A stretch of 64,000 bases of DNA from Bdellovibrionales bacterium (GCA_965217115.1 OZ244239.1:864001-928000), one strand, 5' to 3'. Counted from the stretch's first letter, positions 17,590-55,964 are shown. The notes: a model not told the origin generated them from the letters alone. Numbers and translations: made by a program.

Positions 17590-17702
17590 GCTATTTTAAT
17601 GGGCTTTATTAGTTAGCTCAGACATGCGTTTGGCAGCGCCGCTCGCCATGCGAGCAGCGCACCAAGCCGAACTCGCTAAATAATAAAGCCCATTAAAATA
17701 GC
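17590..17702 (-). repeat. Hairpin element copy A (28-bp arms, 57-nt core), reverse orientation
   Basis: Arms 17590-17617 and 17675-17702 (1 mismatch). Core is the exact reverse complement of 18749-18805. Confidence 0.9.
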
Positions 17703-17741
17703 TCTCCTTGAAATCGCATTTGACTGGGAGCAACAGGGGGC

Positions 17742-18069
17742 CGGGGGCTGGGAACAACGGGGGCCGGAGGAGGGGGAATAACGGAAGCGGAGGAGGGGGA
17801 ACAACGGAAGCGGAGGAGGGGGAACAACGGGGGCGGAGGAGGGGGAACAACGGGGGCGGAGGAGGGGGAACAACGGGAGCGGAGGAGGGGGAACAACGGA
17901 ACCGGAGGAGGGGGAACAACGGGGGCGGAGGAGGGGGAACAACGGGAGAGGGAGAGGGACACTGCTCCCACACTCCGGCCCCCGCTGTTTGCTCGCCTCC
18001 GGACCCGCTGTTCCCCCGCCTCTGGACCCGCTGTTTCCCCGCCTCCGGGCCGCTGTTTGCTCGCCTCTC
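17742..18069. repeat. 23-bp G-rich tandem repeat (8 units) followed by ~4 related inverted C-rich units
   Basis: CGGAGGAGGGGGAACAACGGRRG units at 17765-17948; CCGCTGTT...CCTCCGGAC units at ~17982-18069. Confidence 0.9.
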
Positions 18070-18638
18070 AGGAAATAGATACTGGAGCAGCATTGACATC
18101 TTTAAAAACACCACAAAGCTGACTCCAAGTGGTTTTATCTTATTCTCTCAAAAATAAATTGCCCTATATATTCACCAGTATTTCTATGCACACCCTCTTT
18201 AAAATCCGTGTCCTATGTTCAAGATAGCTTAAGTCTATGTAAATTAATTATCAATTTAGCTAAATTAAAACTTGATGCCTCATCGGATTACTAGGTTAAT
18301 GATCTTCTTAACATCACTCAAATTTTCCTGGTCATTCCCTTAAAATCAATTTTGAAACCAATCAGGCTATGTGGAGCCCACATCTCATCTTCACATAATT
18401 CTTTGATCTTAAATCAAAACTATGTGTGACTCACCTTTTCCTCACCACCTTTTTGGGCATCTTTTTGATTCAATACTTCAAAATTTTCCAATCACTTTTT
18501 AATTGTTCTAAAACACAAAAACTCTCACTCTCCGCCAATGTTTATTATAAACAAAGACCTAACACCTCGATCCATCGAAAAGCCTCCAAAGAACTTTACA
18601 CAAACAGGTCTGGACAAGAATAAACTAATACTTTTTTT

Positions 18639-18843
18639 CCGCTGTCCCCTCTCCTCCGGCCCGCTGTCCCCCCTCCTCCGTCTCCGCTGTCCCCAGTCAA
18701 ATGCAGATTTCAAAGGAGGTTTTTTTAAATGCCCTTCTATTCTTTAGCGAGTTCGGCTTGGTGCGCTGCTCGCATGGCGAGCGGCGCTGCCAAACGCATG
18801 TCTGAGCTAAAGAATAGAAGGGCATTTAAAAAAACCTCCTTTG
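18639..18843 (+). repeat. Hairpin element copy B (perfect 38-bp arms) with C-rich leader
   Basis: Arms 18711-18748 and 18806-18843, core 18749-18805, CCGCTGTCCCC repeats at 18639-18694. Confidence 0.9.
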
Positions 18844-18849
18844 CCAAAA

Positions 18850-19536
18850 TCACAAAAAAATTTCTGTCATTTTCTTTTTAAGCCTCCCAACAAACCCCCC
18901 TTGATCTATTTTTTCACCCGTCAATTCCTCCAAACTCACCATCACATTAGAGTTAAATCCACAGGGGTACACACCTTTAAAGGCCTCGTCATCTTTATGT
19001 AAATTTATTGCCGCTCCATGAAAGGTACACCATTTTTTTATACCAATTCCCAGAGAAGCAAGTTTTTTCTCTTTTACCCAAACTCCTGTCGCCTCTTCTG
19101 GAGATGTTTCTCTATCCCTCTTTTGCGAGCTTCTTCCCGTAGCTATCACTCCATAATCAGAAACTGTCTCCACCAATACTCTTTCAAATAAGCGAAGATA
19201 AGAACCTATGTCCCTCGCCCTGCGCAACTCACTGCGACTCTTTTGATTTAAGTCAACAATAGGATAAATTACCAGCTGACTTGGGCCATGATAAGTGGAA
19301 CGTCCACCACGATTGATCGACAGCAAATCTCCACTCCAGTCGGCGTACTCATAATCCTGAGTCGCACGGCCTAAAGTCACCACCGGAGGATGAGTACAGA
19401 AAATGACTGTGTCACCAGTTTCCCCCGATTGCACCTGTAACAGAGTTGTCTCTTGACGGGACAGAGCTATGTGGTAATCCAAGCATCCCCAATCCTGCCA
19501 AATTATATCATTGGCTTTTTTATTTTTTTCTATCAT
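18850..19536 (-). CDS. lipB: Octanoyltransferase LipB
   Basis: HPPVVTLGR, RGGRSTYHGPSQLVIYP, KLASLGI, FHGAAIN, PCG. Confidence 0.92.
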   Translation of the reverse strand: MIEKNKKANDIIWQDWGCLDYHIALSRQETTLLQVQSGETGDTVIFCTHPPVVTLGRATQDYEYADWSGDLLSINRGGRSTYHGPSQLVIYPIVDLNQKSRSELRRARDIGSYLRLFERVLVETVSDYGVIATGRSSQKRDRETSPEEATGVWVKEKKLASLGIGIKKWCTFHGAAINLHKDDEAFKGVYPCGFNSNVMVSLEELTGEKIDQGGFVGRLKKKMTEIFL

Positions 19537-20948
19537 CGAGTCAGTGGTTTTTGAATCACATGAATGGCATGACCTAAAGCCATCTCCGCTGATTCCATCA
19601 TCGTTTCACCCAAAGTCGGATGGGGGTGAATGGTCAATGCAACATCCTCTAGAGTCGCTCCCATTTCTATAGCTAACACCGCTTCACTGATTAAATTACT
19701 CGCTTCAGGACCAACAATGTGAACTCCTAAAATCACACCCGTTTTTTCATTAGCGATGAACTTCACAAACCCCTCTGTCTCCATCAAAGACACTGCCTTG
19801 CCATTCGCTGCAAAAGGAAACTTAGATATCTTTAGATCTTTATAACCTTTGGCCTTACATTCATCTTCTGTCATTCCAGCTGAAGCTATTTCAGGGTCAG
19901 TAAATATAACTGCAGGAACTGTTTTAGCGTCGTAGACTCGATTCTTCCCTGCAATCACTTCGGCTGCAATCATCCCTTCATGGCTCGCCTTATGGGCCAA
20001 CATCGGCTGACCTGCGATATCACCAATAGCAAAAATATGGGGTAAACTCGTACGACATTGAGCATCTGTACTAACAAAACCTTTTTCATCAATATTCAAT
20101 TTTATTTTTTTCAAACCCGCTTCATCAGAATTAGGCTTGCGCCCCACTGTCACCAAGACCTTGTCTGTTTTTATTTTCTCTTCTTTAGAACTTAAATCAA
20201 CTGTCACGATATAAGCTCCCCCCGATTTTTCGCAACTCTTAGCTTTAGCATTCAGAAGAACTTTAACTCCTGATTTTTTTAACTTACGTTCAACGATTTT
20301 TGCACAATCAGGGTCCGCAGCAGCAGCTAAGAGTTTTTGACCTGCTTCGACTATGGTTACATTCGATCCTAACTTCTGCATATAAGACCCAATCTCTAGG
20401 CCAATATACCCTCCGCCAATCACCACCATGTCTTTAGGAACTTTCTCAAAATTCAACGCTCCTGTAGAAGAACAAATTCCTTGCTCATCAAAATTGAATC
20501 CAGAGATCTCAATAGGACGCGAACCCGTCGCAATAATATAATTTATCGCCTTTAAACTCTTTACTCCCTCTTTGGTCTTAATCGATAATTCTTGAGATGT
20601 TTTGAACTCAGCTTCGCCAATAATAATATCGACTTTATTGCCTTTCAAAAGTTGACTCACACCAGAGGTCATACGATCAACCACCGTGCCTTTCCAGTTT
20701 TTTAATTTTTTCATATCTAATTTAACACTACCTAGGTTAATTCCCATTTCCCCAGAATCATGTTGCGCTCGATGCAAAAAATGCGCTGCCGATATCATCG
20801 CCTTTGAAGGAATACAGCCCACATTTAAACAAATTCCACCAAGAGACTCTCTTTCTATAATAACTGTTTTTTTACCCAACTGAGCCGAACGAATCGCCGC
20901 AACATAACCACCAGGGCCAGCACCAATGACACAAACATCGTAATTCAT
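19533..20948 (-). CDS. lpdA: Dihydrolipoamide dehydrogenase (E3)
   Basis: GAGPGGYVAA, GGICLNVGCIPSK, HPHPTLGE. Confidence 0.95.
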   Translation of the reverse strand: MNYDVCVIGAGPGGYVAAIRSAQLGKKTVIIERESLGGICLNVGCIPSKAMISAAHFLHRAQHDSGEMGINLGSVKLDMKKLKNWKGTVVDRMTSGVSQLLKGNKVDIIIGEAEFKTSQELSIKTKEGVKSLKAINYIIATGSRPIEISGFNFDEQGICSSTGALNFEKVPKDMVVIGGGYIGLEIGSYMQKLGSNVTIVEAGQKLLAAAADPDCAKIVERKLKKSGVKVLLNAKAKSCEKSGGAYIVTVDLSSKEEKIKTDKVLVTVGRKPNSDEAGLKKIKLNIDEKGFVSTDAQCRTSLPHIFAIGDIAGQPMLAHKASHEGMIAAEVIAGKNRVYDAKTVPAVIFTDPEIASAGMTEDECKAKGYKDLKISKFPFAANGKAVSLMETEGFVKFIANEKTGVILGVHIVGPEASNLISEAVLAIEMGATLEDVALTIHPHPTLGETMMESAEMALGHAIHVIQKPLTR

Positions 20949-20964
20949 ATTATTCTTCCTTATT

Positions 20965-22218
20965 TTAGATCATATCCAGTATTAGATTTCCTGGATTTTC
21001 AATGCGCTTTAAAAAAGACCTCAGAAAATGGGCCGCCACAGCTCCGTCAATCAAGCGATGATCTGCCGTTATTGTAAAGCTCATCATTTTCGCCAATTCA
21101 AGCTCAGTATCCACAATCACTGGACGATCCACAATTTTATACATTCCCAGTATAGCCACCTCTGGATGATTAATAATAGGCGTTGCCGATAACCCACCAA
21201 TAGAACCAATGTTAGTGATTGTTATCGTTGCCCCTTTCATCTCTTCTAGCTTAAGTTTTCCCTCTCTCGCACGAGTGGCTAGATCCACAATCTCCCTACT
21301 GATCTCAAGAATGGTCTTACGATCAGCATCTTTAATCACTGGAACCATTAATCCACTAGGTGTCTCCGCCGCAAAACCAATATTATAATATTTCTTATAA
21401 ACAATTTCCTGAGCTTCGTCGTCAATGCTTGCATTGAACATAGGGAACTCTCGCATAGTGCAGATCAAAGCCTTCATCGCAAATGGTAAATAAGTCACCT
21501 TAGTTCCATACTGAGCTGCCTGTTCTTTCACCTGGTTGCGAAGTTTCACCAACTCCGTCACATCGACTTCATCACACAAAGAAAAATGGGGAATGATCGT
21601 CTTACACATTTGCATGTTTTCAGCAATTTTTCGACGTATTCCCTTCAAAGGCACTCTTTCCTCTATCGCTCCGGCTGGCCCTTGATAAAAAGGACGGAGA
21701 ATCCCTTTTACCGAAGAAACAACTGATGTTTTTCCTGCAACATCGCCTGAACGACTTTGTGCCAATACGTCTTCTCGGGTCACACGACCAGCCAACCCTG
21801 TTCCATGCAAACGATTAACATCCACACTTAGCTCACGAGCCAAACGCTTAGTCGAAGGCGTTGCTAAAACCGTCACTTTCGCAACAGGTGGCTGTATTGA
21901 CGATGGTCTGCTTGTTTGGGTGTCTGCCAAAGAAACAGCTGGAGCAGCTGGGGCAGCTACGGGTAGAGGAATCTCTCCATCGGATGCTTTAACCACCAAC
22001 ATCACTTGGCCCACTTCCACTGTGTCACCCGAATTTAGCTTTAATTCTTTAACAACTCCAGAAAAAGGAGTGGGCACTTCCACCGTCGCTTTGTCTGTCA
22101 TGATCTCTGCCACGGGCTGGTCTATTGCCACCTGATCTCCCACTTTAACAAGCCAATCGACCATCTCCCCTTCAGTCACACCTTCACCAATTTCAGGTAA
22201 CTTAATCTCCGTCGCCAT
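20965..22218 (-). CDS. 2-oxoacid dehydrogenase E2 (dihydrolipoamide acyltransferase, one lipoyl domain)
   Basis: TDKATVE lipoyl Lys, E3-binding domain, DHRLIDG catalytic motif. Confidence 0.93.
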   Translation of the reverse strand: MATEIKLPEIGEGVTEGEMVDWLVKVGDQVAIDQPVAEIMTDKATVEVPTPFSGVVKELKLNSGDTVEVGQVMLVVKASDGEIPLPVAAPAAPAVSLADTQTSRPSSIQPPVAKVTVLATPSTKRLARELSVDVNRLHGTGLAGRVTREDVLAQSRSGDVAGKTSVVSSVKGILRPFYQGPAGAIEERVPLKGIRRKIAENMQMCKTIIPHFSLCDEVDVTELVKLRNQVKEQAAQYGTKVTYLPFAMKALICTMREFPMFNASIDDEAQEIVYKKYYNIGFAAETPSGLMVPVIKDADRKTILEISREIVDLATRAREGKLKLEEMKGATITITNIGSIGGLSATPIINHPEVAILGMYKIVDRPVIVDTELELAKMMSFTITADHRLIDGAVAAHFLRSFLKRIENPGNLILDMI

Positions 22219-23153
22219 TACTCTCTCCCAATTGAAACTTCTCTTCTTAATTTACCCTGTCTTTGCTTTTCAATCACACCTTTACGAAAATATTCCCCCG
22301 CACGATAGGAACTTCTCACCAAAGGTCCACTAACTACATATAAAAAACCCATGTTTTCAGCTTCTTTTTGCAATTCTTTAAACCGTTCGGGAGTTATAAA
22401 CTCCCTCACCTGCAAAGACTTCCCTGAGGGTTGTAAATACTGGCCAAAAGTCAGCATATCACAACCCACTGACCTTAGATCTTTTAATGTCTCTACAATT
22501 TCGCCTTGCTTCTCTCCCAAACCAACCATTAAAGACGTCTTAGTATAAACTTCAGGTTTCATCTCCTTAGCCATTTCCAAGACCCGCAAAGACTGCCTGT
22601 AATTCGCCCGAGGATCCCGCACCTCACTTTGTAAACTCTCAACTGTCTCTACATTATGAGCAAAAACATCTAAACCGCTCTCAAGAACTGTTTGAACATG
22701 TTCTCTAATACCACTAAAATCAGGCGTAAGAGCCTCAATTAAAATATGAGGACTAAATTTTTTTACCGCCATCACTGTTTTAGCAAAATGTCCTGATCCA
22801 AGATCTAATAAATCATCTCTATCAACACTGGTTAAAACAATATAATCCAAATTCAATTGAGCAATAGAGCGGCCCAATTTCTCTGGTTCAAGCTCATCTA
22901 TCTCTCCCTTAGGGTTTCCCGTTTTAACAGCACAAAAACGACAACCCCTCGTACAGGTATCTCCCATAAGCATAAAAGTCGCCGTCCCCCCTTCCCAACA
23001 TTCTCCAATATTAGGACATTGAGCTTCCTGACAAACCGTCGCGACACCCAAGTCTTTAACCAACTTATATATATCTTTATAACCCCTCCCAACAGGTGCT
23101 GGAACTTTAAGCCACTTAGGTAGGGGCAAACGCTTTTTCTTAACCGTATCCAT
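22218..23153 (-). CDS. lipA: Lipoyl synthase
   Basis: CQEAQCPNIGEC, CTRGCRFC, PLVRSSY. Confidence 0.95.
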   Translation of the reverse strand: MDTVKKKRLPLPKWLKVPAPVGRGYKDIYKLVKDLGVATVCQEAQCPNIGECWEGGTATFMLMGDTCTRGCRFCAVKTGNPKGEIDELEPEKLGRSIAQLNLDYIVLTSVDRDDLLDLGSGHFAKTVMAVKKFSPHILIEALTPDFSGIREHVQTVLESGLDVFAHNVETVESLQSEVRDPRANYRQSLRVLEMAKEMKPEVYTKTSLMVGLGEKQGEIVETLKDLRSVGCDMLTFGQYLQPSGKSLQVREFITPERFKELQKEAENMGFLYVVSGPLVRSSYRAGEYFRKGVIEKQRQGKLRREVSIGRE

Positions 23154-23447
23154 GTCATCGGTTTACCAGAGAGCATCGCTTTTGTACACACACATCATAA
23201 GCGACTTTTCGCCACCCCCCAATAATACGTATTCTCACTTATTATCAAGTAGTTACTGACTATCTCTCCCCTGTTTTTTCTAAATTAAAACTCCTATTCG
23301 GAGTCACTCCTCTAAGGAAACACTCCAAATATGCGCTTCAGGTCAGAAAAAAACGTCCTAAGCATTACTAAAATAAAACCTAAAGTGGTATTTAGAACAC
23401 TTAAAAAGAGTCCGAAACTAAACATTATCTCTAAAGAGGGGTTATCA

Positions 23448-24203
23448 GTGAAATTCCATAAACCTTTACAAGAAGGACTCTTTATCAAGCGCTACAAAAG
23501 ATTCTTTGCCGATATTAGTTTTAACGGTAAAATTATCACAGCCCATTGCCCTAACACTGGAAGTATGAAGGGCTGTCAGCCACCCCAAGCTTCTTGTTTT
23601 TTCTCAACAAGCGACAATCCTAAAAGGAAACTTCCCTATACCTTAGAGATGATTAAGACCTCTACATCATGGGTGGGCGTAAATACAGCTCTTCCAAATA
23701 AGCTCACCTATGAGGCTTGGCAAAATCAAGTCGTCAATCACTGGAACTCCTTTGATCAAGCTCAGTTAGAAGTTAAAATTAACTCCACCACTCGTTTAGA
23801 CCTAGCACTGTGGAAATCCACTGAAAATTCAACAGAAAAGATTAAGTTTCAAGATTCTGATTTCTTTTCTGCAAGCAGTCCAAAGTTCCATTTTATCGAA
23901 ATTAAAAACGTTAGTCTCGTGGAAGAAGGACGAGCCTGTTTCCCTGATGCAGTCACTCTAAGAGGGCAGAAACACCTCAAAGAGCTAACAAAGCTCATTC
24001 AATCTGGTCACACAGGAGAAATATTTTTTGTCGTACAGAGACATGATGCAAAAGAATTTTCCCCTGCTGATCACATTGATTCTGAATATGGTCGTTTACT
24101 GCGCGAAGGACAAGAGCAGGGGTTGAAAATCTCGGCCTACCCATGTCACCTCTCATCTACAGAAATAAAGATACAACCTTCGCCTTTAAAAATCATTTTA
24201 TAA
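23448..24203 (+). CDS. sfsA: SfsA-family nuclease
   Basis: KRYKRFFAD, HCPNTGSM, EIKNVSL, FPDAVTLRGQKHL; probable GTG start at 23448. Confidence 0.88.
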   Translation: MKFHKPLQEGLFIKRYKRFFADISFNGKIITAHCPNTGSMKGCQPPQASCFFSTSDNPKRKLPYTLEMIKTSTSWVGVNTALPNKLTYEAWQNQVVNHWNSFDQAQLEVKINSTTRLDLALWKSTENSTEKIKFQDSDFFSASSPKFHFIEIKNVSLVEEGRACFPDAVTLRGQKHLKELTKLIQSGHTGEIFFVVQRHDAKEFSPADHIDSEYGRLLREGQEQGLKISAYPCHLSSTEIKIQPSPLKIIL

Positions 24204-24361
24204 ACAATACTCTAATGACGGAATCTCTATGTTCTAACAGTAACAGCCAGCATAAAATCAGATAATTAAAAAAATTGCAGACAAACGCCAATGACTAAGC
24301 TTATTAAGTATCTATCAAAATTAAGATCTAAAAACACCCATACTTAACAGGAGATAATTAC

Positions 24362-25201
24362 ATGGTAAACCACAGAAATAAAATAACTGTCCTTTTCTTC
24401 TTCTCTATTCTTTTGCCGTCTCTATCTCTGGCTTGGGGTTCCACTGGCCATAGGGCCGTTGGGCTTATCGCCGAAAATCACCTCACTCTTAAGGCACGCA
24501 AGGCTATTAAAAAAATAACTGGTGACGAGTCTCTTGCACAAATGAGTACATGGCCAGATTATATAAAATCCAATCCAAAGCATGATTTTAGAAAACCATG
24601 GCACTACATTAATATAAAAGATGGGGGAACCTACACCAAAACTGCCACAAACTCTCGCGGCGATGTTGTCATATCTATTAATGAACAGATCAAAACTTTA
24701 AAAAATAAAAAATCCACTAAGAATCAAAAAGCAATCGCCCTTAAATTTCTTGTACACTTAATTGGAGATATTCACCAACCTCTTCACGTCGGACGCTCTA
24801 AAGATCGTGGTGGCAACTCTCTTAAAATTCTTTTCTTTAAAGCAGAAACAAATCTCCATCGTTTATGGGATGAAAACATGATAGACCACTCAAAACTCAG
24901 TTTTACAGAGCTCACACGGTTTGTTGATCGTCCCTCTCAATTTCATAAAAAATGGCTCAACACAAATGCCGAAGATTGGGCCAACGAAGCTGTACGCCTA
25001 CGAGGTATTGTCTATAATTTCACCGAATCATACATCAAGCCCTATTCACAAGAACATCTAACTATGACTCCAAAACTATTTAATGGTAAAGTCCCAAAGG
25101 TTAGCTGGAGATACATTACTCGCAATTGGCCCGTTATCAAAAAACAAATTCACAAAGCAGGGCGTCGTCTAGCCAACACCCTTAATCAAATTTATCAATA
25201 A
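24362..25201 (+). CDS. Secreted S1/P1 nuclease
   Basis: Signal peptide, then WGSTGH, WPD, HLIGDIHQPLH, NLHRLWD. Confidence 0.9.
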   Translation: MVNHRNKITVLFFFSILLPSLSLAWGSTGHRAVGLIAENHLTLKARKAIKKITGDESLAQMSTWPDYIKSNPKHDFRKPWHYINIKDGGTYTKTATNSRGDVVISINEQIKTLKNKKSTKNQKAIALKFLVHLIGDIHQPLHVGRSKDRGGNSLKILFFKAETNLHRLWDENMIDHSKLSFTELTRFVDRPSQFHKKWLNTNAEDWANEAVRLRGIVYNFTESYIKPYSQEHLTMTPKLFNGKVPKVSWRYITRNWPVIKKQIHKAGRRLANTLNQIYQ

Positions 25202-45160: not shown

Positions 45161-46558
45161 TTATTTTGCAACTTTTTTAAATTCTAAAACTGCCCCTTCA
45201 TCAACTTCAAGATTTGTTAAAGCAAGTCTTAAGGCCTTCACCGTTCGGCGAAATTGTTCTTGATTTTTATCTATTTGCTTGTTTAATTCTTGGACCTTAT
45301 TTCTGTAGTTATTTGATTCGCCCAAAAGTTGATCCATTTTTCTTTTGAGTCCCATTAATGTTTCATCTTTTTGTCTAACAACAGCGTGATTCTCAAGTTT
45401 CATCAGTTCAATACGATTTTCAAGTTCCCTTTCACGCACTCTTATTTTCTTTAGGTCAGACGACAATCGACATTCTAGCTCTTCCACTTTGCTTTTCTTC
45501 TCTTCAATTTCTCTTGTCTTATGGTTCACTGCCTCTTTGAGAATTCCCATTTCAGCTGAAAATATTTCTTCTTGATTTCCTAAATACTGTTTTAATTTTT
45601 CTAACTCCCCCATTTTCTCATCGGAGTTTTTCCTAAAAGTTTCACCTGCTGCTGCAAGGTCTTCATTTTCTATGATTAATCTATCAGCTTCCTTCTCTAA
45701 CTCTATAATTTTTTGCTGAGCTGCTTTTAGATTTTCAGCTTGCACTAACCCGACTTCACCAGAAAACTTCTCTGTCTCCGAAGTACTCAAAGAATCTATA
45801 CCGTAGCTCACTTGTACCTGATCGTCGGAAGCTCCTCCTCCCACCGATTGCACAGCCACTTGAGTGCTCTCATCAGAATTTTCCTCTGTTTTTATTTTTT
45901 CAAAAGCAACAGGCTCTAACGTTGAAGACAATGGTGTTGCCTTTGTCTCATCTTCTTCTTCAACATCTAGGGAGTATAAATTCTCTTCCTGCTTATTTTG
46001 TAACGAAAAACCATCATCCTGTTCTACTTTTTCACAAATATGAACCTCTGTAGCCTCACTATCTACAGCCTCATTACCTACAACCTCATTACCTACAGCC
46101 TCATTATCTACAACCTCTTTGTCAGTGTGGTTTTCTCTAATTTGCTGGAACATGGTAGGTTCATCATTCTCAGCACCTTCAACAGCAGAAGCACTCTCTC
46201 CGAGATCAAGAACCCCAAACGGGTCTACATCAAGTGAATTTTCATTCATTTGGTTCTCATCACTATTTCCAGCACCTTCGACAGCAGAAGCATTCTCTCC
46301 GACATCAAGAACCCCAAACGGGTCTACATCAAGTGAATTTTCATTCGTTTGGTTCTCATCACTATTTCCAGCACCTTCGACAGCAGAAGCATTCTCTCCG
46401 ACATCAAGAACCCCAAACGGGTCTACATCAAGTGAATTTTCATTCATTTGGTTCTCATCACTATTTCCAGCACCTTCCGGCGAAATATCGTCCAAAAGAG
46501 ATTCCATGATTTCATCAGCTAAAAGCGATGTCTGTTCTAAATTATCCGTCTTTTTCAT
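45161..46558 (-). CDS. Acidic, repeat-containing coiled-coil protein
   Basis: Three 33-aa repeats in an acidic N-terminus, long heptad C-terminus. Confidence 0.75.
   Translation of the reverse strand: MKKTDNLEQTSLLADEIMESLLDDISPEGAGNSDENQMNENSLDVDPFGVLDVGENASAVEGAGNSDENQTNENSLDVDPFGVLDVGENASAVEGAGNSDENQMNENSLDVDPFGVLDLGESASAVEGAENDEPTMFQQIRENHTDKEVVDNEAVGNEVVGNEAVDSEATEVHICEKVEQDDGFSLQNKQEENLYSLDVEEEDETKATPLSSTLEPVAFEKIKTEENSDESTQVAVQSVGGGASDDQVQVSYGIDSLSTSETEKFSGEVGLVQAENLKAAQQKIIELEKEADRLIIENEDLAAAGETFRKNSDEKMGELEKLKQYLGNQEEIFSAEMGILKEAVNHKTREIEEKKSKVEELECRLSSDLKKIRVRERELENRIELMKLENHAVVRQKDETLMGLKRKMDQLLGESNNYRNKVQELNKQIDKNQEQFRRTVKALRLALTNLEVDEGAVLEFKKVAK
46171..46477. repeat. Intragenic 99-bp tandem repeat (3 copies plus 10 bp)
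   Basis: Units start at 46171, 46270, 46369 and 46468. Confidence 0.92.
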
Positions 46559-48200: not shown

Positions 48201-48412
48201 AACGGCCTCTCCTTCATTGGTCTCGTTCTATCTCTTTAGGAGAAGAAACTCTTAAAGAGCGATCAAACATTATTAGTTTAAACAAACCTGTCTAAGCTAG
48301 CTAAAAGGTTTTCACCCTCTCTTTTAACACAGAGCATCAAAAGATGCCACCTTTTTCCGCTCTTGAGAACTTTTTACAAAAAAGGGTTTTATGACTTATA
48401 CTCGGGGGCTTA

Positions 48413-49483
48413 TCAGATCAAGAGCTCTGGACGTCCTTCATATTTAGACGTCAATTGACCACAGGCTGCATAAATATCTCTACCCATGGTTTTACGTAAA
48501 AGAACATGAACTCCATTGTCCATTAATTCCTCGCGAAAGCGTTCCACCTGCCCATTGCTCGGTCGAACATAATCAGCATCCTCATGCTCATTAAAGGGAA
48601 TTATGTTCACCTTGCAGGGAATTGATTTAGCTATTTCAGCTAAACGTCTAGCGTCAGCAAGAGAGTCTGTCACTCCTTTAAGTAATACATACTCAACAGT
48701 CACCTTGTCCTTTGTGATTCTTGCGTGTTTTCGACAGGCCTCTAACAATTGTTCAATGGAGTGCTTTTTATTGATCGGCATAATCTCAGAACGAACGGCG
48801 TTGGAGCTACCATTGAGTGAAACAGCCAAACGCACTCTGGCTTGAGTGACCAATGGAATTTGCTCCACCAGACCAGAAGTTGATACTGTGATCTTCTTTC
48901 TTGATATATTCATCCCCCAAGGAGAGTGTAAAACTTCAATCGCTTTAAATACAGCTTCGGGATTATCAAGTGGCTCCCCCATTCCCATAAAAACAATATT
49001 CGTAATACGCTGACCCTCTTCTATAAGATTAGAAGCCCCAACAAACTGCCCGACAATTTCTCTGGCACTTAACCGTTTCTTTAGTTTTCTTTTGCCCGTA
49101 AAACAAAACTTACAACCAAGATTACAACCAACCTCCGATGACACACACAAAGTCAAACGCCCATCAGAAGGAATTAAAACAGCCTCGACCGTCATTGCTA
49201 CTTGACGATCATCAATCACTTCGCTGACATCAAAAAGAAACTTCTGTGTCCCATCCACACTGATTTTATGTTCCACAACTTTAGGCAAAGAAAAATTTAG
49301 CAACTGAGGCAACTCTTCGCGAAATTTTTTTGAAAGGTTCGTCATTTGCTCAACGTCAGTCACTCCTTTTTCATAAACCCATTTAAAAATCTGCTGAGCA
49401 CGAAACTTGGCCTTACCCAAAATCTCCAATCGACTTTGTAAATCATCCAAACTCAAATCATAAAAATAACTCTTTTCCTTCAA
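48413..49483 (-). CDS. rlmN: 23S rRNA/tRNA m2A methyltransferase
   Basis: CNLGCKFC, FMGMGEP, DIYAACGQL. Confidence 0.95.
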   Translation of the reverse strand: MKEKSYFYDLSLDDLQSRLEILGKAKFRAQQIFKWVYEKGVTDVEQMTNLSKKFREELPQLLNFSLPKVVEHKISVDGTQKFLFDVSEVIDDRQVAMTVEAVLIPSDGRLTLCVSSEVGCNLGCKFCFTGKRKLKKRLSAREIVGQFVGASNLIEEGQRITNIVFMGMGEPLDNPEAVFKAIEVLHSPWGMNISRKKITVSTSGLVEQIPLVTQARVRLAVSLNGSSNAVRSEIMPINKKHSIEQLLEACRKHARITKDKVTVEYVLLKGVTDSLADARRLAEIAKSIPCKVNIIPFNEHEDADYVRPSNGQVERFREELMDNGVHVLLRKTMGRDIYAACGQLTSKYEGRPELLI

Positions 49484-49589
49484 TCAGCCCTCCACCAAAG
49501 CCCTCTCCTTCTACCACAAACACCAAAATATCTCACCAAAACCCCCTTTAATAATCCATTCTAATCATTTTTTAAGAATTTATTTCACA

Positions 49590-49775
49590 CCCCCCTCCGT
49601 TATTCCCTCCGTTATTCCCCCCGTTGTTCCCAGTCCCCGCAAGTTTTCAAATAAATGGTTCAAAGGGTCTTTCATCTTCAAGCGAGTTCGGATTGGTGCG
49701 CCGCTCGCAAAGCGAGCCGCGCTGCCGAACGAATGTCTGAGCTTGAAGATGGAAGACCCTTTGAACCATTTATTT
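49590..49775 (+). repeat. Hairpin element copy C1 (35-bp arms) with C-rich leader
   Basis: Arms 49649-49683 and 49741-49775, core 49684-49740. Confidence 0.9.
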
Positions 49776-49839
49776 CAGACCCAGCTCCCCAAAACCCATG
49801 TTATAGAGAACCATCTTATACAATTCTACTGGGAGAAAT

Positions 49840-49914
49840 AAAGCCCTAGGTAAATAATCAGCCTCTAGCCGACAAGGCTAAGATTTGACGACGTACAAAA
49901 TAAATTATTCCATT
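49840..49914 (+). repeat. 75-bp direct repeat J1 (left copy)
   Basis: Matches 51831-51905 with 1 mismatch. Confidence 0.92.
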
Positions 49915-50779
49915 ATTCAAGTGAACGTAGACATTTGGCAACTTTTTTCATTTCTGAGCTTTCTGTAGATGATTTTGACTTAACAATATAAACATCTCTT
50001 TTGATGGGCTTAAAGCCACTTGGGAAATTTTTCTGATATAGCTTATAATCATCTTTAACAATTTGATTGTGAATTTTGGCAATAAAATTTGGAAGATAAA
50101 TAACACATAATCCACTCCTTGAAAGTTCTATTGCACTTTCGAGAGTATCAACTCTATGTTGAATTAAGCGTGGAAACTCATGCTCCGGCCAACCATCAAG
50201 CCCTTTGACACCTGACGGAGCCCCTTTTATTGGTTGTATGGGAGCTACAAAAGGTATTTCCTGAAAATTTAAATTATTAAAAGAACCTTTTGTTCCGTAA
50301 ATTGACATTTGAACTTTTGAAATTTTTAAAAAATCTACCCCAGGAGTTGGGATAGGCTCATATGTTATTCCAAAATCTACTATCTTTTTTGCAACAAATT
50401 CTTCTAATTCTCCCTGTCTGGTTTCATAGAGATCTAATTTATAAGTTTCCAACAATGGCTTCAACTTCTTTAAAAAATACGTGCTAAAGACCTCAAATGT
50501 TGCTATTTTAATATTACTTGATTCAGCTTTTTTATTTATTACACTTAAATCTTCTATTTGATTGATGATGTTCTTAGCTCTCTTATAAATAACTACTGCT
50601 TCATTGGAGGGCACTATACCTCGGCCTTCGGGTAAAAATAGTTCAAAACCCAGTTCTTCTTCTAATACTTTCAGTGACTTAGACAGCGCACCATGGCTCA
50701 TTCCTATTAGATCAGCGGCACTTCTTAACCCACCAGTTTCAACAACCGTACAAAATTGCTTAAGCCTATTGGTCTCCAT
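49913..50779 (-). CDS. LysR-family transcriptional regulator
   Basis: METNRLKQF..GGLRSAADLIGMSHGALSKSLKVLEEELG HTH; true start ATG 50779. Confidence 0.9.
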   Translation of the reverse strand: METNRLKQFCTVVETGGLRSAADLIGMSHGALSKSLKVLEEELGFELFLPEGRGIVPSNEAVVIYKRAKNIINQIEDLSVINKKAESSNIKIATFEVFSTYFLKKLKPLLETYKLDLYETRQGELEEFVAKKIVDFGITYEPIPTPGVDFLKISKVQMSIYGTKGSFNNLNFQEIPFVAPIQPIKGAPSGVKGLDGWPEHEFPRLIQHRVDTLESAIELSRSGLCVIYLPNFIAKIHNQIVKDDYKLYQKNFPSGFKPIKRDVYIVKSKSSTESSEMKKVAKCLRSLE

Positions 50780-50883
50780 ATAGAAACAGATATATAAAAT
50801 AATTCGATATACGGCAACAATAAAAATGAATATATTCCGACCTTCTTGAGAAATCAATAAAGGTCTAAAACCGAGGAGGAGAT

Positions 50884-51249
50884 ATGAAAACAATAATTTT
50901 ATTATGTTTATTGATAGGGTCACAGCATATTTTTGCTGCCAGTTGTGACATTGAAAAAGGGCACTACTTAATATTAAAGGTTGATCAACTAAAGGTAAAA
51001 GTAGATTCTTGTGACCCAACTCCAGGGTGGGGCCAGGGAAGAGCTCATTTTGCTACATTTGATAAAAATGATTTAGCTCGAGCAAAGCGAGAACTACTTA
51101 CCAAGCATCACCCCCTGATACCTGACCGTTGTCAATTACTAGGAACAGGTGATATTGAAATTATAAGTAATCGTAGTCTTTGTAGCTTCTCAGGGGTAGA
51201 CGAAGCAACAGCAAATTTCACCGTAAGATATAAGTGTCACTTATTCTGA
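50884..51249 (+). CDS. Small secreted Cys-containing protein
   Basis: GAGGAG RBS, signal peptide, divergent from LysR. Confidence 0.75.
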   Translation: MKTIILLCLLIGSQHIFAASCDIEKGHYLILKVDQLKVKVDSCDPTPGWGQGRAHFATFDKNDLARAKRELLTKHHPLIPDRCQLLGTGDIEIISNRSLCSFSGVDEATANFTVRYKCHLF

Positions 51250-51330
51250 TTTAATGTAACTGTTCCTTTAATTCTGTGCAGAGGACGGTATGCTAATAAA
51301 TGTATTTAATAGAGTTAAGGGAAGTGAGAC

Positions 51331-51840
51331 ATGTTATCAAATTTTAAGTTAATTGAATTTTCATCAATAATGTTACTTATTCTAGGTAGTCTCTCTTTTG
51401 CAGGAGTTAAAAACGAAGAGGTTATCTATAAAAAATTGATTCTCAAAGCCAGTAAAGAACAGATTTGGTCTACATTGACTGATCAAAATGAACTGGGCAA
51501 ATGGTGGAATAAAGGAGTCAGACTTGAACCATATGTCGGTGGACAATTCTATGAACCTTGGGGAGAGGGGCAATTAGCCACTGGGAAAGTAGTAGATTTA
51601 AAATTTCAAAAGTTTATAAAGTTTACTTGGAAAGAGAAGTATTGGAATTCTTCTGAAAGTACAGTTTGTACATTTTTTCTAGAGAAAGTAGAAAAAGGGA
51701 CGGTCTTAAAAATTCATCATTCTGGCTGGGAGTCTATTAAAGAATTAAGTAAAAGAAAAAAACTAATTGAAGGATTTCAGAAGGGCTGGGACCTTCTTTT
51801 ACCAAAATTGAAGAAATATGTTGAATCGGAAAAGCCCTAG
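51331..51840 (+). CDS. SRPBCC/AHSA1-like domain protein with signal peptide
   Basis: ASKEQIWSTLTD..LGKWW, IKFTW, GTVLKIHHSGW, GWDLLL. Confidence 0.85.
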   Translation: MLSNFKLIEFSSIMLLILGSLSFAGVKNEEVIYKKLILKASKEQIWSTLTDQNELGKWWNKGVRLEPYVGGQFYEPWGEGQLATGKVVDLKFQKFIKFTWKEKYWNSSESTVCTFFLEKVEKGTVLKIHHSGWESIKELSKRKKLIEGFQKGWDLLLPKLKKYVESEKP

Positions 51841-51905
51841 GTAAATAATCAGGCTCTAGCCGACAAGGCTAAGATTTGACGACGTACAAAATAAATTATT
51901 CCATT
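51831..51905 (+). repeat. 75-bp direct repeat J1 (right copy)
   Basis: Matches 49840-49914; contains the TAG stop of 51331..51840. Confidence 0.92.
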
Positions 51906-51917
51906 GGATTATCAGAT

Positions 51918-52508
51918 ATGAATACTAAAAAAGAAAGTTGGAATGATTATTACAAAAAAATAAGCAGAAAACCTCCTAGCCTATTACTTAAGGTGGCCTT
52001 AAATGAGGTTAAGCAGATTGGTATTGCTTATGACTTAGGGGCTGGAGCAGGAGTTGACTCAAAATTTCTAGCCAAACAAGGTTGGAATGTTTTTGCTGTA
52101 GATAAAGAACCGTCATCTATTAATTTTATTAGGAAAATCAAAACAGTGAGAGGTGATATTAAACCTGTTTTATCTAACTTTGAAGAATTAACTCTTCAAA
52201 AAGCCCATCTTATATTTGCATCATTTTCTTTACCGTTTTGTAGCCCGTGTAAATTTCCATTTTTATGGAACAAAATACAATCATCACTGGTCGGCGGGGG
52301 CATATTGGCTGGAACATTGCTTGGAAATAACGATAGTTGGGTCAAAGATTCTAACGGAGGAATGACATTTCAAACAAATAAACAGATTCTCGATTTATTT
52401 GAAGATTATGAAATTTTATATTTCGATGAACAGGAAGAGGATCGTCCAACGGCTCTAGGAAAGCAAAAGCACTGGCATGTATACAGTTTTGTAGTCCGAA
52501 AACACTAG
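51918..52508 (+). CDS. Class I SAM-dependent methyltransferase (TehB-like)
   Basis: AYDLGAGAGVDS, VFAVD, FSLPF, KHWHVY; probable ATG at 51918. Confidence 0.85.
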   Translation: MNTKKESWNDYYKKISRKPPSLLLKVALNEVKQIGIAYDLGAGAGVDSKFLAKQGWNVFAVDKEPSSINFIRKIKTVRGDIKPVLSNFEELTLQKAHLIFASFSLPFCSPCKFPFLWNKIQSSLVGGGILAGTLLGNNDSWVKDSNGGMTFQTNKQILDLFEDYEILYFDEQEEDRPTALGKQKHWHVYSFVVRKH

Positions 52509-52613
52509 GTTCTGAGGCGAATTAAAAATCACAAAGCTCAGGCTTTTAAGATGCCTCCCGTAAAGAAGATGAAAGCCCCTTTGAACCAACCTTATCTACC
52601 AAAAGTTAAGTCC
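52504..52613 (+). repeat. Junction repeat J2 plus half-arm of the hairpin element
   Basis: Near-identical to 55449-55559; first 39 bp also occur at 54598-54636. Confidence 0.9.
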
Positions 52614-52622
52614 TCTCTTTAA

Positions 52623-52800
52623 CCCCCGCTGTTCCCCCCGTTGTTCCCAATCCCCGCTGTTCCCAGTCCACGCAAGTTTTCAAATAAATAGTTCAAAGGG
52701 TCTTTTATCTTCAAGCGAGTTCGGATTGGTGCGCCGCTCGCAAAGCGAGCTGCGCTGCCGAACGAATGTCTGAGCTTGAAGATGAAAGCCCCTTTGAACC
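52623..52800 (+). repeat. Hairpin element copy C2 with C-rich leader
   Basis: Arms 52691-52716 and 52774-52799, core 52717-52773. Confidence 0.9.
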
Positions 52801-53060
52801 ACGCCTTATTTGCCAAAAGTTAAGTTCTCTATTTAGTCCCCAACCTCTCAGCCAAAGCCTCTTTTTAAAACTCTAAATTGACAATCTACGCAAGGGGTTA
52901 GACACCTCAAAAACTCTCAGGCATCGATAAATTGATGTCTAAGCTATTTTCTCCATGGCATAGAATATGCTGTCTAAAGTCTTGAAATTAATGGTATCAG
53001 TCTGATTTAGGAGAATTAAATGAAAAAATTATTATTTTTAACAACTATTATTTTGAGGGT

Positions 53061-53339
53061 ATGCCTGTGAGATTAGTAAGAACTATCACTATCGCTTTAA
53101 GTATTTTTTTGAGCTTTGCTGTGTTAGCAAGCGACTATGAGTGTTCAGGATTATTTATGAAGTGCTCTGAAGGAGAAGAAATACATCACCTTACTAGATT
53201 GTCAGAATCTGAATGTAGTGGATCATATGAGGGATGTAGGCAGTACTTAAAAAACGAATTAAAGAACTTACGGAAAGTAAAAAAAACTGAAGTGTTTTGC
53301 TATTTCGATGAATACCGTAACGAAGCTATCTGTTTATAA
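53061..53339 (+). CDS. Small secreted Cys-rich protein
   Basis: Signal peptide, 6 Cys in the mature part. Confidence 0.65.
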   Translation: MPVRLVRTITIALSIFLSFAVLASDYECSGLFMKCSEGEEIHHLTRLSESECSGSYEGCRQYLKNELKNLRKVKKTEVFCYFDEYRNEAICL

Positions 53340-53604
53340 CTAGATTAGTAAAGATGGTTTAAGATGTAAAATACACTCAGCAGGAATACTCTCTGCAAAG
53401 ATAAGAGTTCTTTGCAGCAGCTTGAACAAAGAAATTTCTTTTTCACCTAAGGTTTCTTCTAAAACATGATCCAAAATATACGAGCCAAACGAATGCCTGA
53501 GCTTAAAGATGAAAGCCCCTTTGAACCAACCTTATCTACCAAAAGTTAAGTTCTCTATTTAGTCCTTAAGATCCCACCAAACAAGGCACACACCCCGCCC
53601 CTTG

Positions 53605-53754
53605 CCCCCGCTGTTCCCAGTCCCCGCAAGTTTTCAAATAAATGGTTCAAAGGGTCTTTTATCTTCAAGCGAGTTCGGATTGGTGCGCCGCTCGCAAAGC
53701 GAGCCGCGCTGCCGAACGAATGTCTGAGCTTGAAGATGGAAGACCCTTTGAACC
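53605..53754 (+). repeat. Hairpin element copy C3
   Basis: Arms 53644-53670 and 53728-53754, core 53671-53727; preceded by a half copy at 53484-53527. Confidence 0.9.
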
Positions 53755-54156
53755 AGCCTTACCTACCAAAAGTTAAGTCCTCTCTTTAGTCTGCTGCCCC
53801 AGAAAAAACTCTTTTTAAAACTCTAAACTGACAATCTGTGCAAGGGATTAGACACCTCAGAAAAGCTCAGTTACCGATAGATTTATGTCTGAGCTGTTTT
53901 TTCGATGAGCGGTAAATAATTGATCCCCAGCCAACAGGACTAGAATATCATAGCGAGGCCACTGGAAAGTGGTCTTTTTCCTTTGGGGCCGGAAAACGTC
54001 ACTTCTAAAAGCAATCCCCGAAAAAATTGAAAAATTTACATCACTCGATGATTTTCCCCTTAAAAGTGCACGAATCAGTTATAATAATTCAAACAATATC
54101 AATCAAATTTAAGAGAATTTGTCCCCCAAGGAAATAGAACGATATCAAGAGGAGAA

Positions 54157-54567
54157 ATGATGAAAAAAATATTAATTGGTTTAACTCTTTTAATGTCCGT
54201 TACAGTTTTTGCTGAGAAAAGGATTATCACCTGCTCAAATACGGCTATCACAGTTCATTCGGAGAATATTATCGGAGGGGAATTCACTGTGACGCCTTCT
54301 AAAGGAATTCAGCATAAACTAACTATCAAATTGGAAGGAGGAGCAGATTCAATTTTTTGGGCTACTTCAGACACTTCTCAAGAACAACTTTTTGCTGGAG
54401 GCATCATGCATAATGCCAGTAGCTTAACCATGTTTCCTGGCGGTAATAAAGCAATGTTGTCCTTCGAAGGCGATATTTATCCTTTGGTGTGTGATAAAAA
54501 ATGGAGTACTGAGTTGAGTAAATGGCTTGAAGAATGGCACCAAAGGGAGAAAAGGTGGTCTTGGTAG
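54157..54567 (+). CDS. Hypothetical secreted protein
   Basis: GAGGAG RBS, classic signal peptide MKKILIGLTLLMSVTVFA. Confidence 0.75.
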   Translation: MMKKILIGLTLLMSVTVFAEKRIITCSNTAITVHSENIIGGEFTVTPSKGIQHKLTIKLEGGADSIFWATSDTSQEQLFAGGIMHNASSLTMFPGGNKAMLSFEGDIYPLVCDKKWSTELSKWLEEWHQREKRWSW

Positions 54568-54690
54568 TAAACTCATTAACTAGACAGATTTTTTTTCACT
54601 AGGTTCTGAGGCTAATTAAAAATCACAAAACTCAGGAACTCTAAACGAATCGAACAAATAAACCATTAGTTTATCGAGGATAGAAAGACT

Positions 54691-55449
54691 TTGAGATTAC
54701 TTTTAATATTGTTTTTTTCTGCATTTATATTTAGTGATACCTCTTGGGCTTCTTCTTCATGTGCAGACTTTCTCGGGAGTTCATTCAGAAGTGAAAGTCG
54801 TGTTATTACGACCGATACAATAGTTAAAAAAAGTGATGCTCCCATCTTAATGAAAGATATTTTAGGTTTTGTATATTACACTAAATTAAATTGGAAAAAT
54901 TTTATATCTAAACATCGAAGAAAGGTTCGTTTATATGATACTGATTGGAGCAGAGAGAATTTCCTTAAGGAACAATTACTCTTACCTAAAGACTTAAAGC
55001 CTGATGAGCGAAAGATTATCTTAAAAATAAAGAGAGAGACATCACCGGAATCAAAACATTATAAAAAGGCGCAAGAATTAGAAGGGACTCCAGATATTAT
55101 TGGAGTTGAGTCTGCTATTTTGAAAATTAAACTTAAAAGCAACGACATTTATTATGCTGAACACACTTCAAATAGAGAGACATCAATAAAAGTTCAAGAT
55201 ATTCTTTCAGCATTATCTGGAATAGGAAGAAAAAAGAATTTCTCGCCAAATGATATTGCAGAATTACACTTTTTCCATAATCATCCAGGAATAACTCAAC
55301 CTATCTCAAAGCCTGATGTGGGAGTTGCCAAGAAATTTGTAAAAATTTTTGGTGATAATAATCCCGATTTTAAATTTCACATGTATGCAATTAGTTTTGA
55401 AAATAGTCTTCGTCCAACACTTATCTTTCATGCTGGGTTTCAGAATTGA
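54691..55449 (+). CDS. Secreted protein with C-terminal JAB/MPN-like motif
   Basis: Signal peptide; GVESAIL...FFHNHPGITQPISKPD. Confidence 0.65.
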   Translation: MRLLLILFFSAFIFSDTSWASSSCADFLGSSFRSESRVITTDTIVKKSDAPILMKDILGFVYYTKLNWKNFISKHRRKVRLYDTDWSRENFLKEQLLLPKDLKPDERKIILKIKRETSPESKHYKKAQELEGTPDIIGVESAILKIKLKSNDIYYAEHTSNRETSIKVQDILSALSGIGRKKNFSPNDIAELHFFHNHPGITQPISKPDVGVAKKFVKIFGDNNPDFKFHMYAISFENSLRPTLIFHAGFQN

Positions 55450-55557
55450 CTAGGTTCTGAGGCGAATTAAAAATCACAAAGCTCAGGCTTTTAAGATGCC
55501 TCCCGCAAAGAAGATGAAAGCCCCCTTTGAACCAACCTTATCTACCAAAAGTTAAGT

Positions 55558-55749
55558 CCGTTGTTCCCCCGCTGTTCCCCATTGTCCCCCCCCCTGTTCC
55601 CCCCGCTGTTCCCAGTCCCCGCAAGTTTTCAAATAAATGGTTCAAAGGGTCTTTTATCTTCAAGCGAGTTCGGATTGGTGCGCCGCTCGCAAAGCGAGCC
55701 GCGCTGCCGAACGAATGTCTGAGCTTGAAGATGGAAGACCCTTTGAACC
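55558..55749 (+). repeat. Hairpin element copy C4 with C-rich leader
   Basis: Arms 55639-55665 and 55723-55749, core 55666-55722. Confidence 0.9.
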
Positions 55750-55817
55750 AGCCTTATCTACCAAAAGTTAAGTCCTCTATATAGGCCTTAAGCCCCCCAC
55801 CGAACACCCCATACCTT

Positions 55818-55964
55818 CGCTGTTCCCAGTCCACGCAAGTTTTCAAATAAAATGGTTCAAAGGGTCTTTCATCTTCAAGCGAGTTCGGATTGGTGCGCCG
55901 CTCGCAAAGCGAGCTGCGCTGCCGAACGAATGTCTGAGCTTGAAGATGGAAGACCCTTTGAACC
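55818..55964 (+). repeat. Hairpin element copy C5, 4 bp from the rfaE stop
   Basis: Arms 55854-55880 and 55938-55964, core 55881-55937. Confidence 0.9.

Follow-up and report, generated by a model that had tools for sequence, protein, structure and literature searches.

A palindromic repeat family with a conserved centre and covarying stems at gene ends in Bdellovibrionales

Introduction

The DNA considered here is a 64,000-nucleotide stretch from a Bdellovibrionales bacterium (GCA_965217115.1, OZ244239.1:864001-928000), referred to throughout as the window, which corresponds to C1:864001-928000 of a single-contig genome (G000) of 2,170,531 bp, 39.6% GC and 99.4% completeness. Between its genes, at the ends of a lipB-like gene and of an hldA-like kinase gene among others, stand seven complete and three partial copies of an imperfect hairpin, which is built on a 57-nt core and preceded by C-rich leader repeats. 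An initial annotation had described this hairpin as a dispersed family whose arms co-vary, and had taken it to be either a strand-specific site of single-stranded DNA (ssDNA) recombination or a structured RNA. Palindromic intergenic repeats are a known kind of element, represented by REP, ERIC, Correia and RPE, most of which conserve their arms or termini. We describe the hairpin as a real and well-defined element family, assess its distribution, structure and genomic setting, and argue that in the window a family of non-autonomous palindromic repeats, intergenic and order-wide in distribution, has expanded locally.

Results

Copies of the element in the window

When the core was written as a 57-nt IUPAC pattern it matched the window seven times with 0 mismatches, at every position at which a complete copy had been reported, and 100 dinucleotide-preserving shuffles returned 0 matches (0 expected). 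Reading of the sequence bore out three right-half copies near 52565, 53484 and 55510, three versions of the arms, each of them self-complementary, and a leader of the form (CCGYTGTYCCC)n-CCCAGTC-N6/7-G[AT]TTTCAA. The leaders are also real tandem arrays according to Tandem Repeats Finder, with a period of 23 x 8.6 at 17750-17948 and period-12 arrays at 49593-49631, 52623-52648 and 55558-55613. The core had been said to be always 57 nt, which holds within the window; across the genome it ranges from 57 to ~96 nt because of loop insertions.

On the + strand, 55600-55790 folds into one long hairpin of -82.2 kcal/mol (z -9.0), and the reverse strand folds less well (-78.7 kcal/mol). The inner stem, with one mismatch and a bulged U, and the asymmetric 2x6 internal loop agree with the fold originally proposed. 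The arms had been drawn too short: pairing extends outwards through GATTT...AAATC around a CCC bulge, and the foot of the copy 2 hairpin therefore overlaps the stop codon of the lipB-like gene. The remark that arm mismatches in the copies labelled C are mostly T.G is correct for the inner ~26 bp (7 G.T, 0 A.C) but not for the extended arms (7 G.T vs 7 A.C). Coordinates are collected in Table 1.

Table 1. Copies of the element and neighbouring features in the window (core positions from the pattern match)
Feature	Position	Strand	Remarks
S49 peptidase gene	15717-17522	-	
Copy 1 (complete), hairpin	17590..17702	-	core 17618-17674; 3' tail faces start of S49 peptidase gene
Copy 1 leader	17703..17950	-	on - strand: GATTTCAA, CCCAGTC, then 8.6 units of 23-nt C-rich repeat; G-rich on +
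Leader-like C-rich array with no hairpin behind	17973..18067	+	period 23 x 4.1; inverted relative to copy 1 leader
Copy 2 leader	18638..18710	+	C-rich repeats; CCCAGTC 18692-18698; GATTTCAA 18707-18714
Copy 2 (complete)	18711..18852	+	core 18749-18805; tail CTTTGCCAAAATCA; final 3 nt are stop codon of convergent lipB-like gene
lipB-like gene	18850-19536	-	convergent; stop TGA at 18850-18852
rlmN	48413-49483	-	flanks copy 3
Copy 3	49586..49775	+	leader 49586-49648; hairpin 49649-49775; core 49684-49740
LysR gene	49913-51019	-	flanks copy 3
Accessory genes between seams	49913..55449		LysR, AHSA1-like, TehB-like methyltransferase, three small open reading frames (ORFs) without family
Seam 1	52565..52800	+	right-arm remnant and tail (52565 to ~52620), leader, complete copy 4 (hairpin 52691-52800, core 52717-52773)
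Seam 2	53484..53754	+	remnant beginning within core (CCAAACGAATGCCTGAGC...), hldA-like tail, leader, copy 5
Copy 5 (complete), hairpin	53644-53754	+	core 53671-53727
Seam 3	55510..55971	+	right-arm remnant, leader, copies 6 and 7
Copy 6, hairpin	55639-55749	+	core 55666-55722; with copy 7, a 215-nt tandem duplication
Copy 7, hairpin	55854-55964	+	core 55881-55937
Stop codon of hldA-like kinase gene	55969-55971	-	4 nt from seam 3 hairpin foot

The feature at present yields spurious proline-rich ORFs (17596-18114, 17708-18157, 55527-55784). A coding reading of ORFs across leader and core was rejected as an artefact of C-rich sequence, and the covariation described below speaks against it. Other repeats occur in the window. 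The 23-nt leader-type arrays at 17750-17948 and 17973-18067 lie head to head (G-rich, then C-rich on the + strand) and could form a long fold-back of their own. The same ~40-60-nt stretch (CTAGGTTCTGAGGCGAATTAAAAATCACAAAGCTCAGG...), a second small repeat, stands behind three unrelated island ORFs at 52505-52565, 54568-54640 and 55447-55510, where it precedes the truncated hairpin copies. A 99-nt unit is repeated 3.1 times with 97% identity at 46171-46477, within an ORF on the - strand (45161-46558).

Extent of the family

Iterated nhmmer searches recovered 70 copies in 19 clusters from the 2.17-Mb genome, seven of them in the window; many either follow one another in tandem, with a period of 147-273 nt, or are spaced by 1-4 kb of gene-bearing DNA. 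Taking the strand that carries GAGTTCGG as the sense strand of the element, 56 of the 70 copies have the leader upstream, 2 (3 by eye) have it downstream in reverse complement, and 12 have no recognisable leader. Behind panD (L096 2850-3560; G000 ~1,025,850-1,026,560) a (TTCTCC)n microsatellite is accompanied by four 132-nt tandem units, each of which combines two small GCTCGC...GCGAGC hairpins with a ACAACAAC/GTTGTT stem, a leader and the beginning of a left arm, and lacks the core; the last unit alone continues into a full element.

One genome from each of 185,579 species was scanned for the exact pattern; of the 26 loci obtained, ~19 have a full core and flanking inverted repeats and were judged real; these come from metagenome-assembled genomes labelled Bdellovibrionales, Bdellovibrionaceae or Pseudobdellovibrionaceae. 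When a covariance model built from 40 copies (R1) was run on a sample of the phylum, 4 of the 23 additional genomes belonging to this order carried the element, against 0 of 127 belonging to other orders. An order-wide sample then placed it in 19 of 150 other Bdellovibrionales genomes, belonging to seven families (f28 1/4, f3 10/31, f4 1/5, f5 1/7, f2 3/31, f31 1/1, f32 2/31) and usually with many copies each, and gave no matches in f1 (0/1), f26 (0/26), f27 (0/7), f29, f30 and f33. At most 28 candidates were scored per genome in these searches, so that their copy numbers (1 to at least 28) are lower bounds; between relatives, copy number varies from 1 to 70.

Rfam 15 had no match in the window at gathering thresholds, and with E values up to 10 a search of 501 nt gave noise only (best MIR820, 34 bits against a threshold of 196). 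A full-text literature search on palindromic or intergenic repeats of Bdellovibrio, miniature inverted-repeat elements and RAYT listed nothing relevant, and the family is apparently undescribed. A different and unrelated long hairpin (-80.9 kcal/mol over 160 nt) stands ~20-170 nt behind hldA in another genome (L085, G152); giant gene-end hairpins of several families seem common in the order.

Conserved centre and covarying stems

Each copy is a fold-back of 110-230 nt whose basal and apical stems vary in sequence and are kept paired. The centre has a fixed order of 5' GAGTTC, helix P2, helix P3, apical stem-loop, P3', P2' and 3' TGTYTGA. Constant across genomes are the 5' GAGTTC and the 3' TGTYTGA(GC), which enclose the two small helices and form an internal loop of GAG against UGUYUGA with a near-invariant G.U pair at the base of P2; in total ~25 unpaired or weakly paired core positions are constant across eight families of the order. 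The helices themselves change: P2 and P3 are TTCG/CGAA with TTGG/CCAA here, TCTGA/TCAGA, TCCGA/TCGGA and TCAAG/CTTGA in G056, and variants of CCGTGGG/CCCACGG in G248. The apical stem is free, and is replaced outright at L075 and L056. Judged by eye, the GAG/UGUYUGA loop does not fit the consensus of a kink-turn, a box C/D motif, a hammerhead or a hairpin ribozyme, and these readings were rejected.

The co-variation proposed for the family proved genuine when set against shuffled and slid controls. In alignment A1, 88.8% of cells are paired, against 69.3% after shuffling and 36-49% when partners were slid, and double changes occupy 246 cells against 77. Among 86 copies from nine other genomes the corresponding figures are 91.8% against 67.9% shuffled, and 642 double-change cells against 209.

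Departures from pairing by one transition are strongly asymmetric. In the other genomes 248 are G.T on the GAGTTCGG strand and 21 are A.C (163 vs 21 when the invariant pair is left out), and the basal stem P1 alone has 96 against 18; in this genome, over 58 distinct rows, the counts are 52 vs 14 for P1 and 69 vs 4 for P2/P3. The excess has the same direction in ten genomes, and it follows that one strand is kept foldable. Correspondingly, 52 of 57 copies are more stably folded on the GAGTTCGG strand than on its complement, the mean difference being 6.0 kcal/mol with RNA parameters and 2.4 with DNA parameters, and the strand specificity suggested from the window copies applies to the family. 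Hence the element has both marks of a structured RNA, covariation beyond controls and wobbles confined to one strand, as seen in related copies and model-fitted alignments.

The outer parts behave differently from genome to genome. In G269 an inner ~95 nt is common to the copies; beyond it, 21 copies have outer arms of 24-73 bp that form near-perfect inverted repeats, with no relation between the arms of different loci (over 210 pairs, mean local score 6.39 against 5.65 in shuffles; scores of at least 12 in 4 pairs against 0). The variable stem of G248 copies and of those in this genome is framed by subterminal motifs that are weakly conserved (TTTGGGT; CTTTGCCCAAATC). The C-rich leader is limited to this genome, and its motif GTTGTTCC recurs elsewhere once, in the outer arm of G216 copies. 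The core may also be inverted relative to the outer arms, as it is in two of 12 copies in G216 (L152 and L154), in G056 (L059 vs L054) and in three copies of this genome (529130, 529370 and 533850); in the flipped G216 copies the 3' side of the core is still directed at the convergent gene.

Position at gene ends

Elements are found in 39 intergenic regions of this genome. With one count per orientation and region, 17 have a convergent gene downstream and a co-oriented gene upstream, 16 are co-oriented in tandem, nine are antisense in tandem and three are divergent. At 22 loci a convergent ORF ends 16-65 nt from the core match, with its stop codon at the hairpin foot or within about a dozen nucleotides; at five loci the TGA stop is the TCA of the tail motif AAATCA, and in a few the stop is inside the arm. 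Of the 86 copies in nine other genomes, 43 are convergent, 25 antisense-tandem, 12 sense-tandem, five divergent and one undefined. In G275 the distance from the model match to the convergent stop is nearly constant (59-86 nt), and four copies in four genomes adjoin the CCA end of a convergent tRNA gene. Copies are otherwise outside coding regions, or overlap the last few codons only.

GC skew places the origin at ~1.26 Mb and the terminus at ~0.17 Mb. Of 38 groups, 25 have their sense strand on the lagging side and 13 do not, a weak bias that results from gene orientation; element orientation follows the neighbouring genes and not the replichore. The skew of this genome is itself unusually strong (+/-0.15-0.2).

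Filled and empty sites and accessory islets

Comparison with relatives provides both filled and empty sites. In G024 an rpoD-like gene has a copy behind its stop codon and ahead of its own intrinsic terminator; at the same site in congeners there are ~27-30 nt only (G253, G285, G286) or less (G281, G293), and in G282 a different insert. Similarly, hldA is followed directly by rlmN, across a short element-free spacer without a hairpin, in three relatives, and the 6.5-kb block of the window that carries five copies is therefore an insertion. The hldA protein aligns with its relatives up to residues 340-343 of 346, so its C-terminus is native; the seam tails repeat up to ~80 nt of the hldA 3' coding end, the likeness in seam 2 being to ~80 nt of it, and the join of tail and leader falls, by reading, on a common CCCCGCTG. 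The three truncated copies break at different points and not at one crossover site. At two comparisons the congener flanks are only 69-86% identical, which leaves the junctions, and with them any target duplication, beyond base resolution.

Nearly all the small accessory-gene islets examined in this genome have the element at their seams. The flanks of clusters are housekeeping genes (purL/purF, aconitase, topoisomerase VI, polA, EF-G, CTP synthase, TrpRS/MetRS, panD, YceG, LpxC, RuvB), and the genes between copies are mostly without family or encode leucine-rich repeat, ankyrin, FG-GAP or RES domains. At L094 10697-13709 (G000 534,193-537,208) the genes for topoisomerase VI subunits A and B adjoin an element cluster. 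The sequencing runs listed for the stretch are four DNA runs from one sample, with no RNA run among them. Logan contigs of the source sample break at every copy; one (X2, record 13) joins 52690 to 53645 across 60 common letters and so skips the cassette with the 92-aa ORF, either as a cassette-less variant in the population or as a collapsed repeat, and was not used as evidence.

Search for an enzyme

The enzyme that the recombination idea calls for was not encountered: among the families searched in this genome there is no Y1 HUH or RAYT protein (PF01797), IS110, DDE_Tnp_1 or TnpB (PF07282), and unlinked to copies there are one resolvase fragment and one rve ORF. Three tyrosine recombinases are present, one XerC-like, one XerD-like and one a phage-type integrase with an excisionase-like neighbour; none is within 25 kb of a copy, the integrase being 25 kb from the nearest. 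Against the integron integrase model TIGR02249 the best Xer-like proteins score 121 and 94 bits, the cut-off being 265. A linked HUH or RAYT protein, tyrosine recombinase or reverse transcriptase had been named as the thing to look for. No recombinase is encoded among the 123 ORFs that lie up to 2.6 kb from 16 clusters, and clustering of 545 ORFs next to copies in ten genomes returned generic families only, with no specific family recurring.

Three links were considered and rejected. RAYT was one: of the 150 genomes sampled from the order, 117 have PF01797, which shows no association with the element (16 of 19 carriers have it, as do 101 of 131 non-carriers), and the carriers without it include G269 (at least 28 copies), G214 and G216. 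The second was a retron: the genome encodes a single reverse transcriptase, that of a type VI retron, which adjoins a type III restriction gene and is 40 kb away from the nearest copy. The third was Xer/dif mimicry: a candidate dif bears no likeness to the core. Several genomes, G016, G064, G210 and G186 among them, have 17-27 or more weak PF01797 ORFs of 170-260 aa, in what looks like a RAYT-like expansion unrelated to presence of the element. The retron (RT_VI and HTH_VI) and restriction enzyme form a defence islet in the str operon region, directly behind rpoC-rpsL-rpsG (L177; G000 1,865,000-1,873,000), with EF-G encoded elsewhere (~1.928 Mb). The candidate dif-like site is at G000 ~184,747 on the - strand, with a good XerD arm, near the GC-skew terminus.

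Discussion

We favour, with about even confidence, the reading that the element is a non-autonomous palindromic repeat resembling REP, ERIC and miniature inverted-repeat transposable elements (MITEs), which functions, once transcribed, as a folded structure at gene ends, and which in this genome also provides recombination seams for accessory islets. Copies would arise by insertion a few nucleotides behind stop codons or tRNA 3' ends and, if transcribed with their neighbours, would act as folded RNA on the GAGTTCGG strand. Between units that are adjacent or convergent, a very stable hairpin at the 3' end might stop both read-through and 3' exonucleases, and a host factor may read its internal loop. 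In this genome only, the C-rich 11-23-nt leader repeats could conceivably provide a Rho-loading-like stretch for transcripts running toward the convergent housekeeping gene. Direct repeats of 110-215 nt may serve as recombination seams, at which tandem duplications form and accessory genes gather behind housekeeping genes; identical direct copies would explain both the tandem arrays and the accessory-gene seams. Homogenisation of the stems by template switching is plausible. Of the two natures first proposed, the structured RNA is the better supported, and the recombination site lacks support on the side of the enzyme.

Several considerations weigh against this account. Transcription and its direction are things that we infer, and position and fold point opposite ways: the gene that the element touches is convergent, so that its mRNA would carry the less well-paired antisense strand, and between tandem genes of the other genomes antisense copies outnumber sense copies by 25 to 12. 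The Rho idea cannot explain the family, because the leader is confined to this genome. The perfect arms of G269, unrelated between loci, look like DNA-level copying and not like RNA-level selection. Nor is the element an intrinsic terminator, given that a consensus scan places none on any copy and that the inner hairpin is preceded by T runs and followed by A runs, with no 3' U tract; the host gene in G024 keeps its own terminator behind the element. Finally, alignments A2 and A4 were fitted to the model, the 86-copy alignment being among those so fitted, and since the copies are related the counts overstate independent events.

The G269 arms lead to the alternative that fares best, namely that the repeats are selfish or passive palindromic DNA without cellular function. 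The core would then be a self-perpetuating fold-back, template switching from arm to arm at replication (quasipalindrome correction, copy-back) would keep the stems complementary, and copies would persist only where they are harmless, just behind genes. Such an origin suits the common tandem arrays and partial units, the core flips, the patchy distribution across the order, and an element with neither an enzyme nor a promoter or terminator consensus. We nevertheless consider it unlikely. Copying of arms gives perfect pairs, and does not predict an 8-12:1 excess of G.T over A.C on one strand of elements whose orientation to replication is mixed; the constancy of the unpaired and weakly paired core positions is left unexplained; and where the variable stem lies inside conserved subterminal motifs, as in G248 and this genome, the stem is not simply copied flank.

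A strand-specific ssDNA recombination or transposition site, at which the folded GAGTTCGG DNA strand is cut and joined by an HUH, tyrosine or other recombinase acting in trans, is in our judgement improbable. It would account for dispersal, inversion of the core and cassette-like arrays, in the manner of an integron whose integrase is not visible. One strand is kept foldable, and among DNA mismatches, too, G.T is the one best tolerated; the unpaired bases of the asymmetric loop are the same from genus to genus. There are filled and empty sites, different genes stand between near-identical seams at which truncated copies are found, and cores are inverted in G216, in G056 and in three copies here. 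These features have to be set against a 99.4%-complete genome that has 70 copies and none of the Y1 HUH, IS110, TnpB or DDE_Tnp_1 enzymes, against abundant copies in G269 without PF01797, whose occurrence is no guide to carriers, and against Xer-like proteins far below the integron-integrase cut-off. No family recurs beside copies, the replichore bias is weak and explained by gene orientation, and the truncated copies break at differing points.

Were the elements stand-alone small RNA genes, each would have its own upstream promoter and produce a rod-like RNA, which either sequesters a protein through the conserved loop or regulates, as a cis-antisense RNA, the 3' end of the convergent gene that it touches. 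The sense-strand structure with its invariant G.U pair is conserved, the 3' end of the element always points into the end of a convergent gene, and the only upstream gene is divergent in 25 of 86 copies elsewhere and in nine of 45 region groups here, where sense transcripts would therefore need a promoter of their own. That explanation is very doubtful, since the copies between 49300 and 56200 have no sigma-70-like promoter at a constant position upstream, truncated copies and arrays of 147-273-nt tandem units are atypical of small RNA genes, copy number varies widely between relatives, and Rfam has no match. We would attach similarly little credence to a reading in which the core is the working part of an enzyme-less or host-enzyme-driven system of propagation and gene capture, its loop recognised by a conserved host protein, such that a fold-back seed inserts behind stop codons, extends its stems by copy-back synthesis and could flip, and the repeats build and reshuffle accessory cassette arrays behind housekeeping genes, integron-like but without an integrase.

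The palindromic repeat at gene ends that we favour can be compared with known systems, among them REP/REPIN, ERIC, Correia, RPE and attC. REP and REPIN sequences are short GC-rich intergenic palindromes with tens to hundreds of copies, often behind genes and in arrays, and can stabilise upstream mRNA. The present element shares their GC-rich intergenic palindromes, high copy number, frequent position behind genes, arrays and single-strand folding. REPINs, however, have conserved arms (two REPs with a 5' GTAG-type motif), a variable loop and a RAYT gene that is typically flanked by REPs, whereas here the centre is conserved, the arms are free, and neither this genome nor G269 has a Y1 HUH gene. 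ERIC (IRU) sequences of enterobacteria are imperfect ~127-bp palindromes with a conserved central inverted repeat, intergenic and co-transcribed, with orientation-dependent effects on mRNA; we know of no transposase for them. They offer the likeness of an imperfect intergenic palindrome with a conserved centre and no transposase, but there is no sequence relation, and ERIC arms are conserved where the stems here are hypervariable, the core can flip, and a repeat leader is present in this genome.

The Correia elements of Neisseria (CREE/NEMIS) and other MITEs are non-autonomous 100-160-bp fold-backs at gene ends, co-transcribed, which reshape intergenic regions. Our element is likewise a non-autonomous fold-back repeat at gene ends; but MITEs are defined by conserved terminal inverted repeats and target-site duplications, whereas its termini are weakly conserved (a CCCAAA-type motif), with short subterminal motifs only, and the rve ORF is the sole transposase-family member found in G000 among the families searched. 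Integron attC sites are imperfect strand-specific hairpins with unpaired bases that separate promoterless-looking accessory genes, their foot (R''/R') conserved and their middle variable. The resemblance in strand-specific imperfect hairpins between arrayed accessory genes is clear, but the pattern is reversed, with a conserved centre, a variable foot and no IntI; arms are identical within an array here, and seams also duplicate the 3' end of the neighbouring housekeeping gene. IS200/IS605-type ssDNA elements (PATE) show a lagging-strand-template bias and have TnpA/TnpB genes, unlike the present element, in which the 25 vs 13 groups follow gene orientation and PF01797 and PF07282 are absent. 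The palindromic elements of Rickettsia (RPE) are lineage-restricted repeats without a transposase in small genomes, as here, but are often inserted in frame inside genes, in contrast to copies that lie outside coding regions or touch the last few codons only.

What sets this palindromic repeat apart is a centre conserved across an order of predatory bacteria, with stems that drift and stay paired. It is further distinguished by a strand-specific wobble signature, an invertible core, the lack of a cognate transposase and, in one small genome, its place at the seams of accessory islets. The covariance model gives annotators of Bdellovibrionales a handle on a feature that is now turned into proline-rich ORFs. 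The family also offers a tractable case in which to study the spread of enzyme-less palindromes, the homogenisation of their arms and a possible role as RNA insulators at gene ends.

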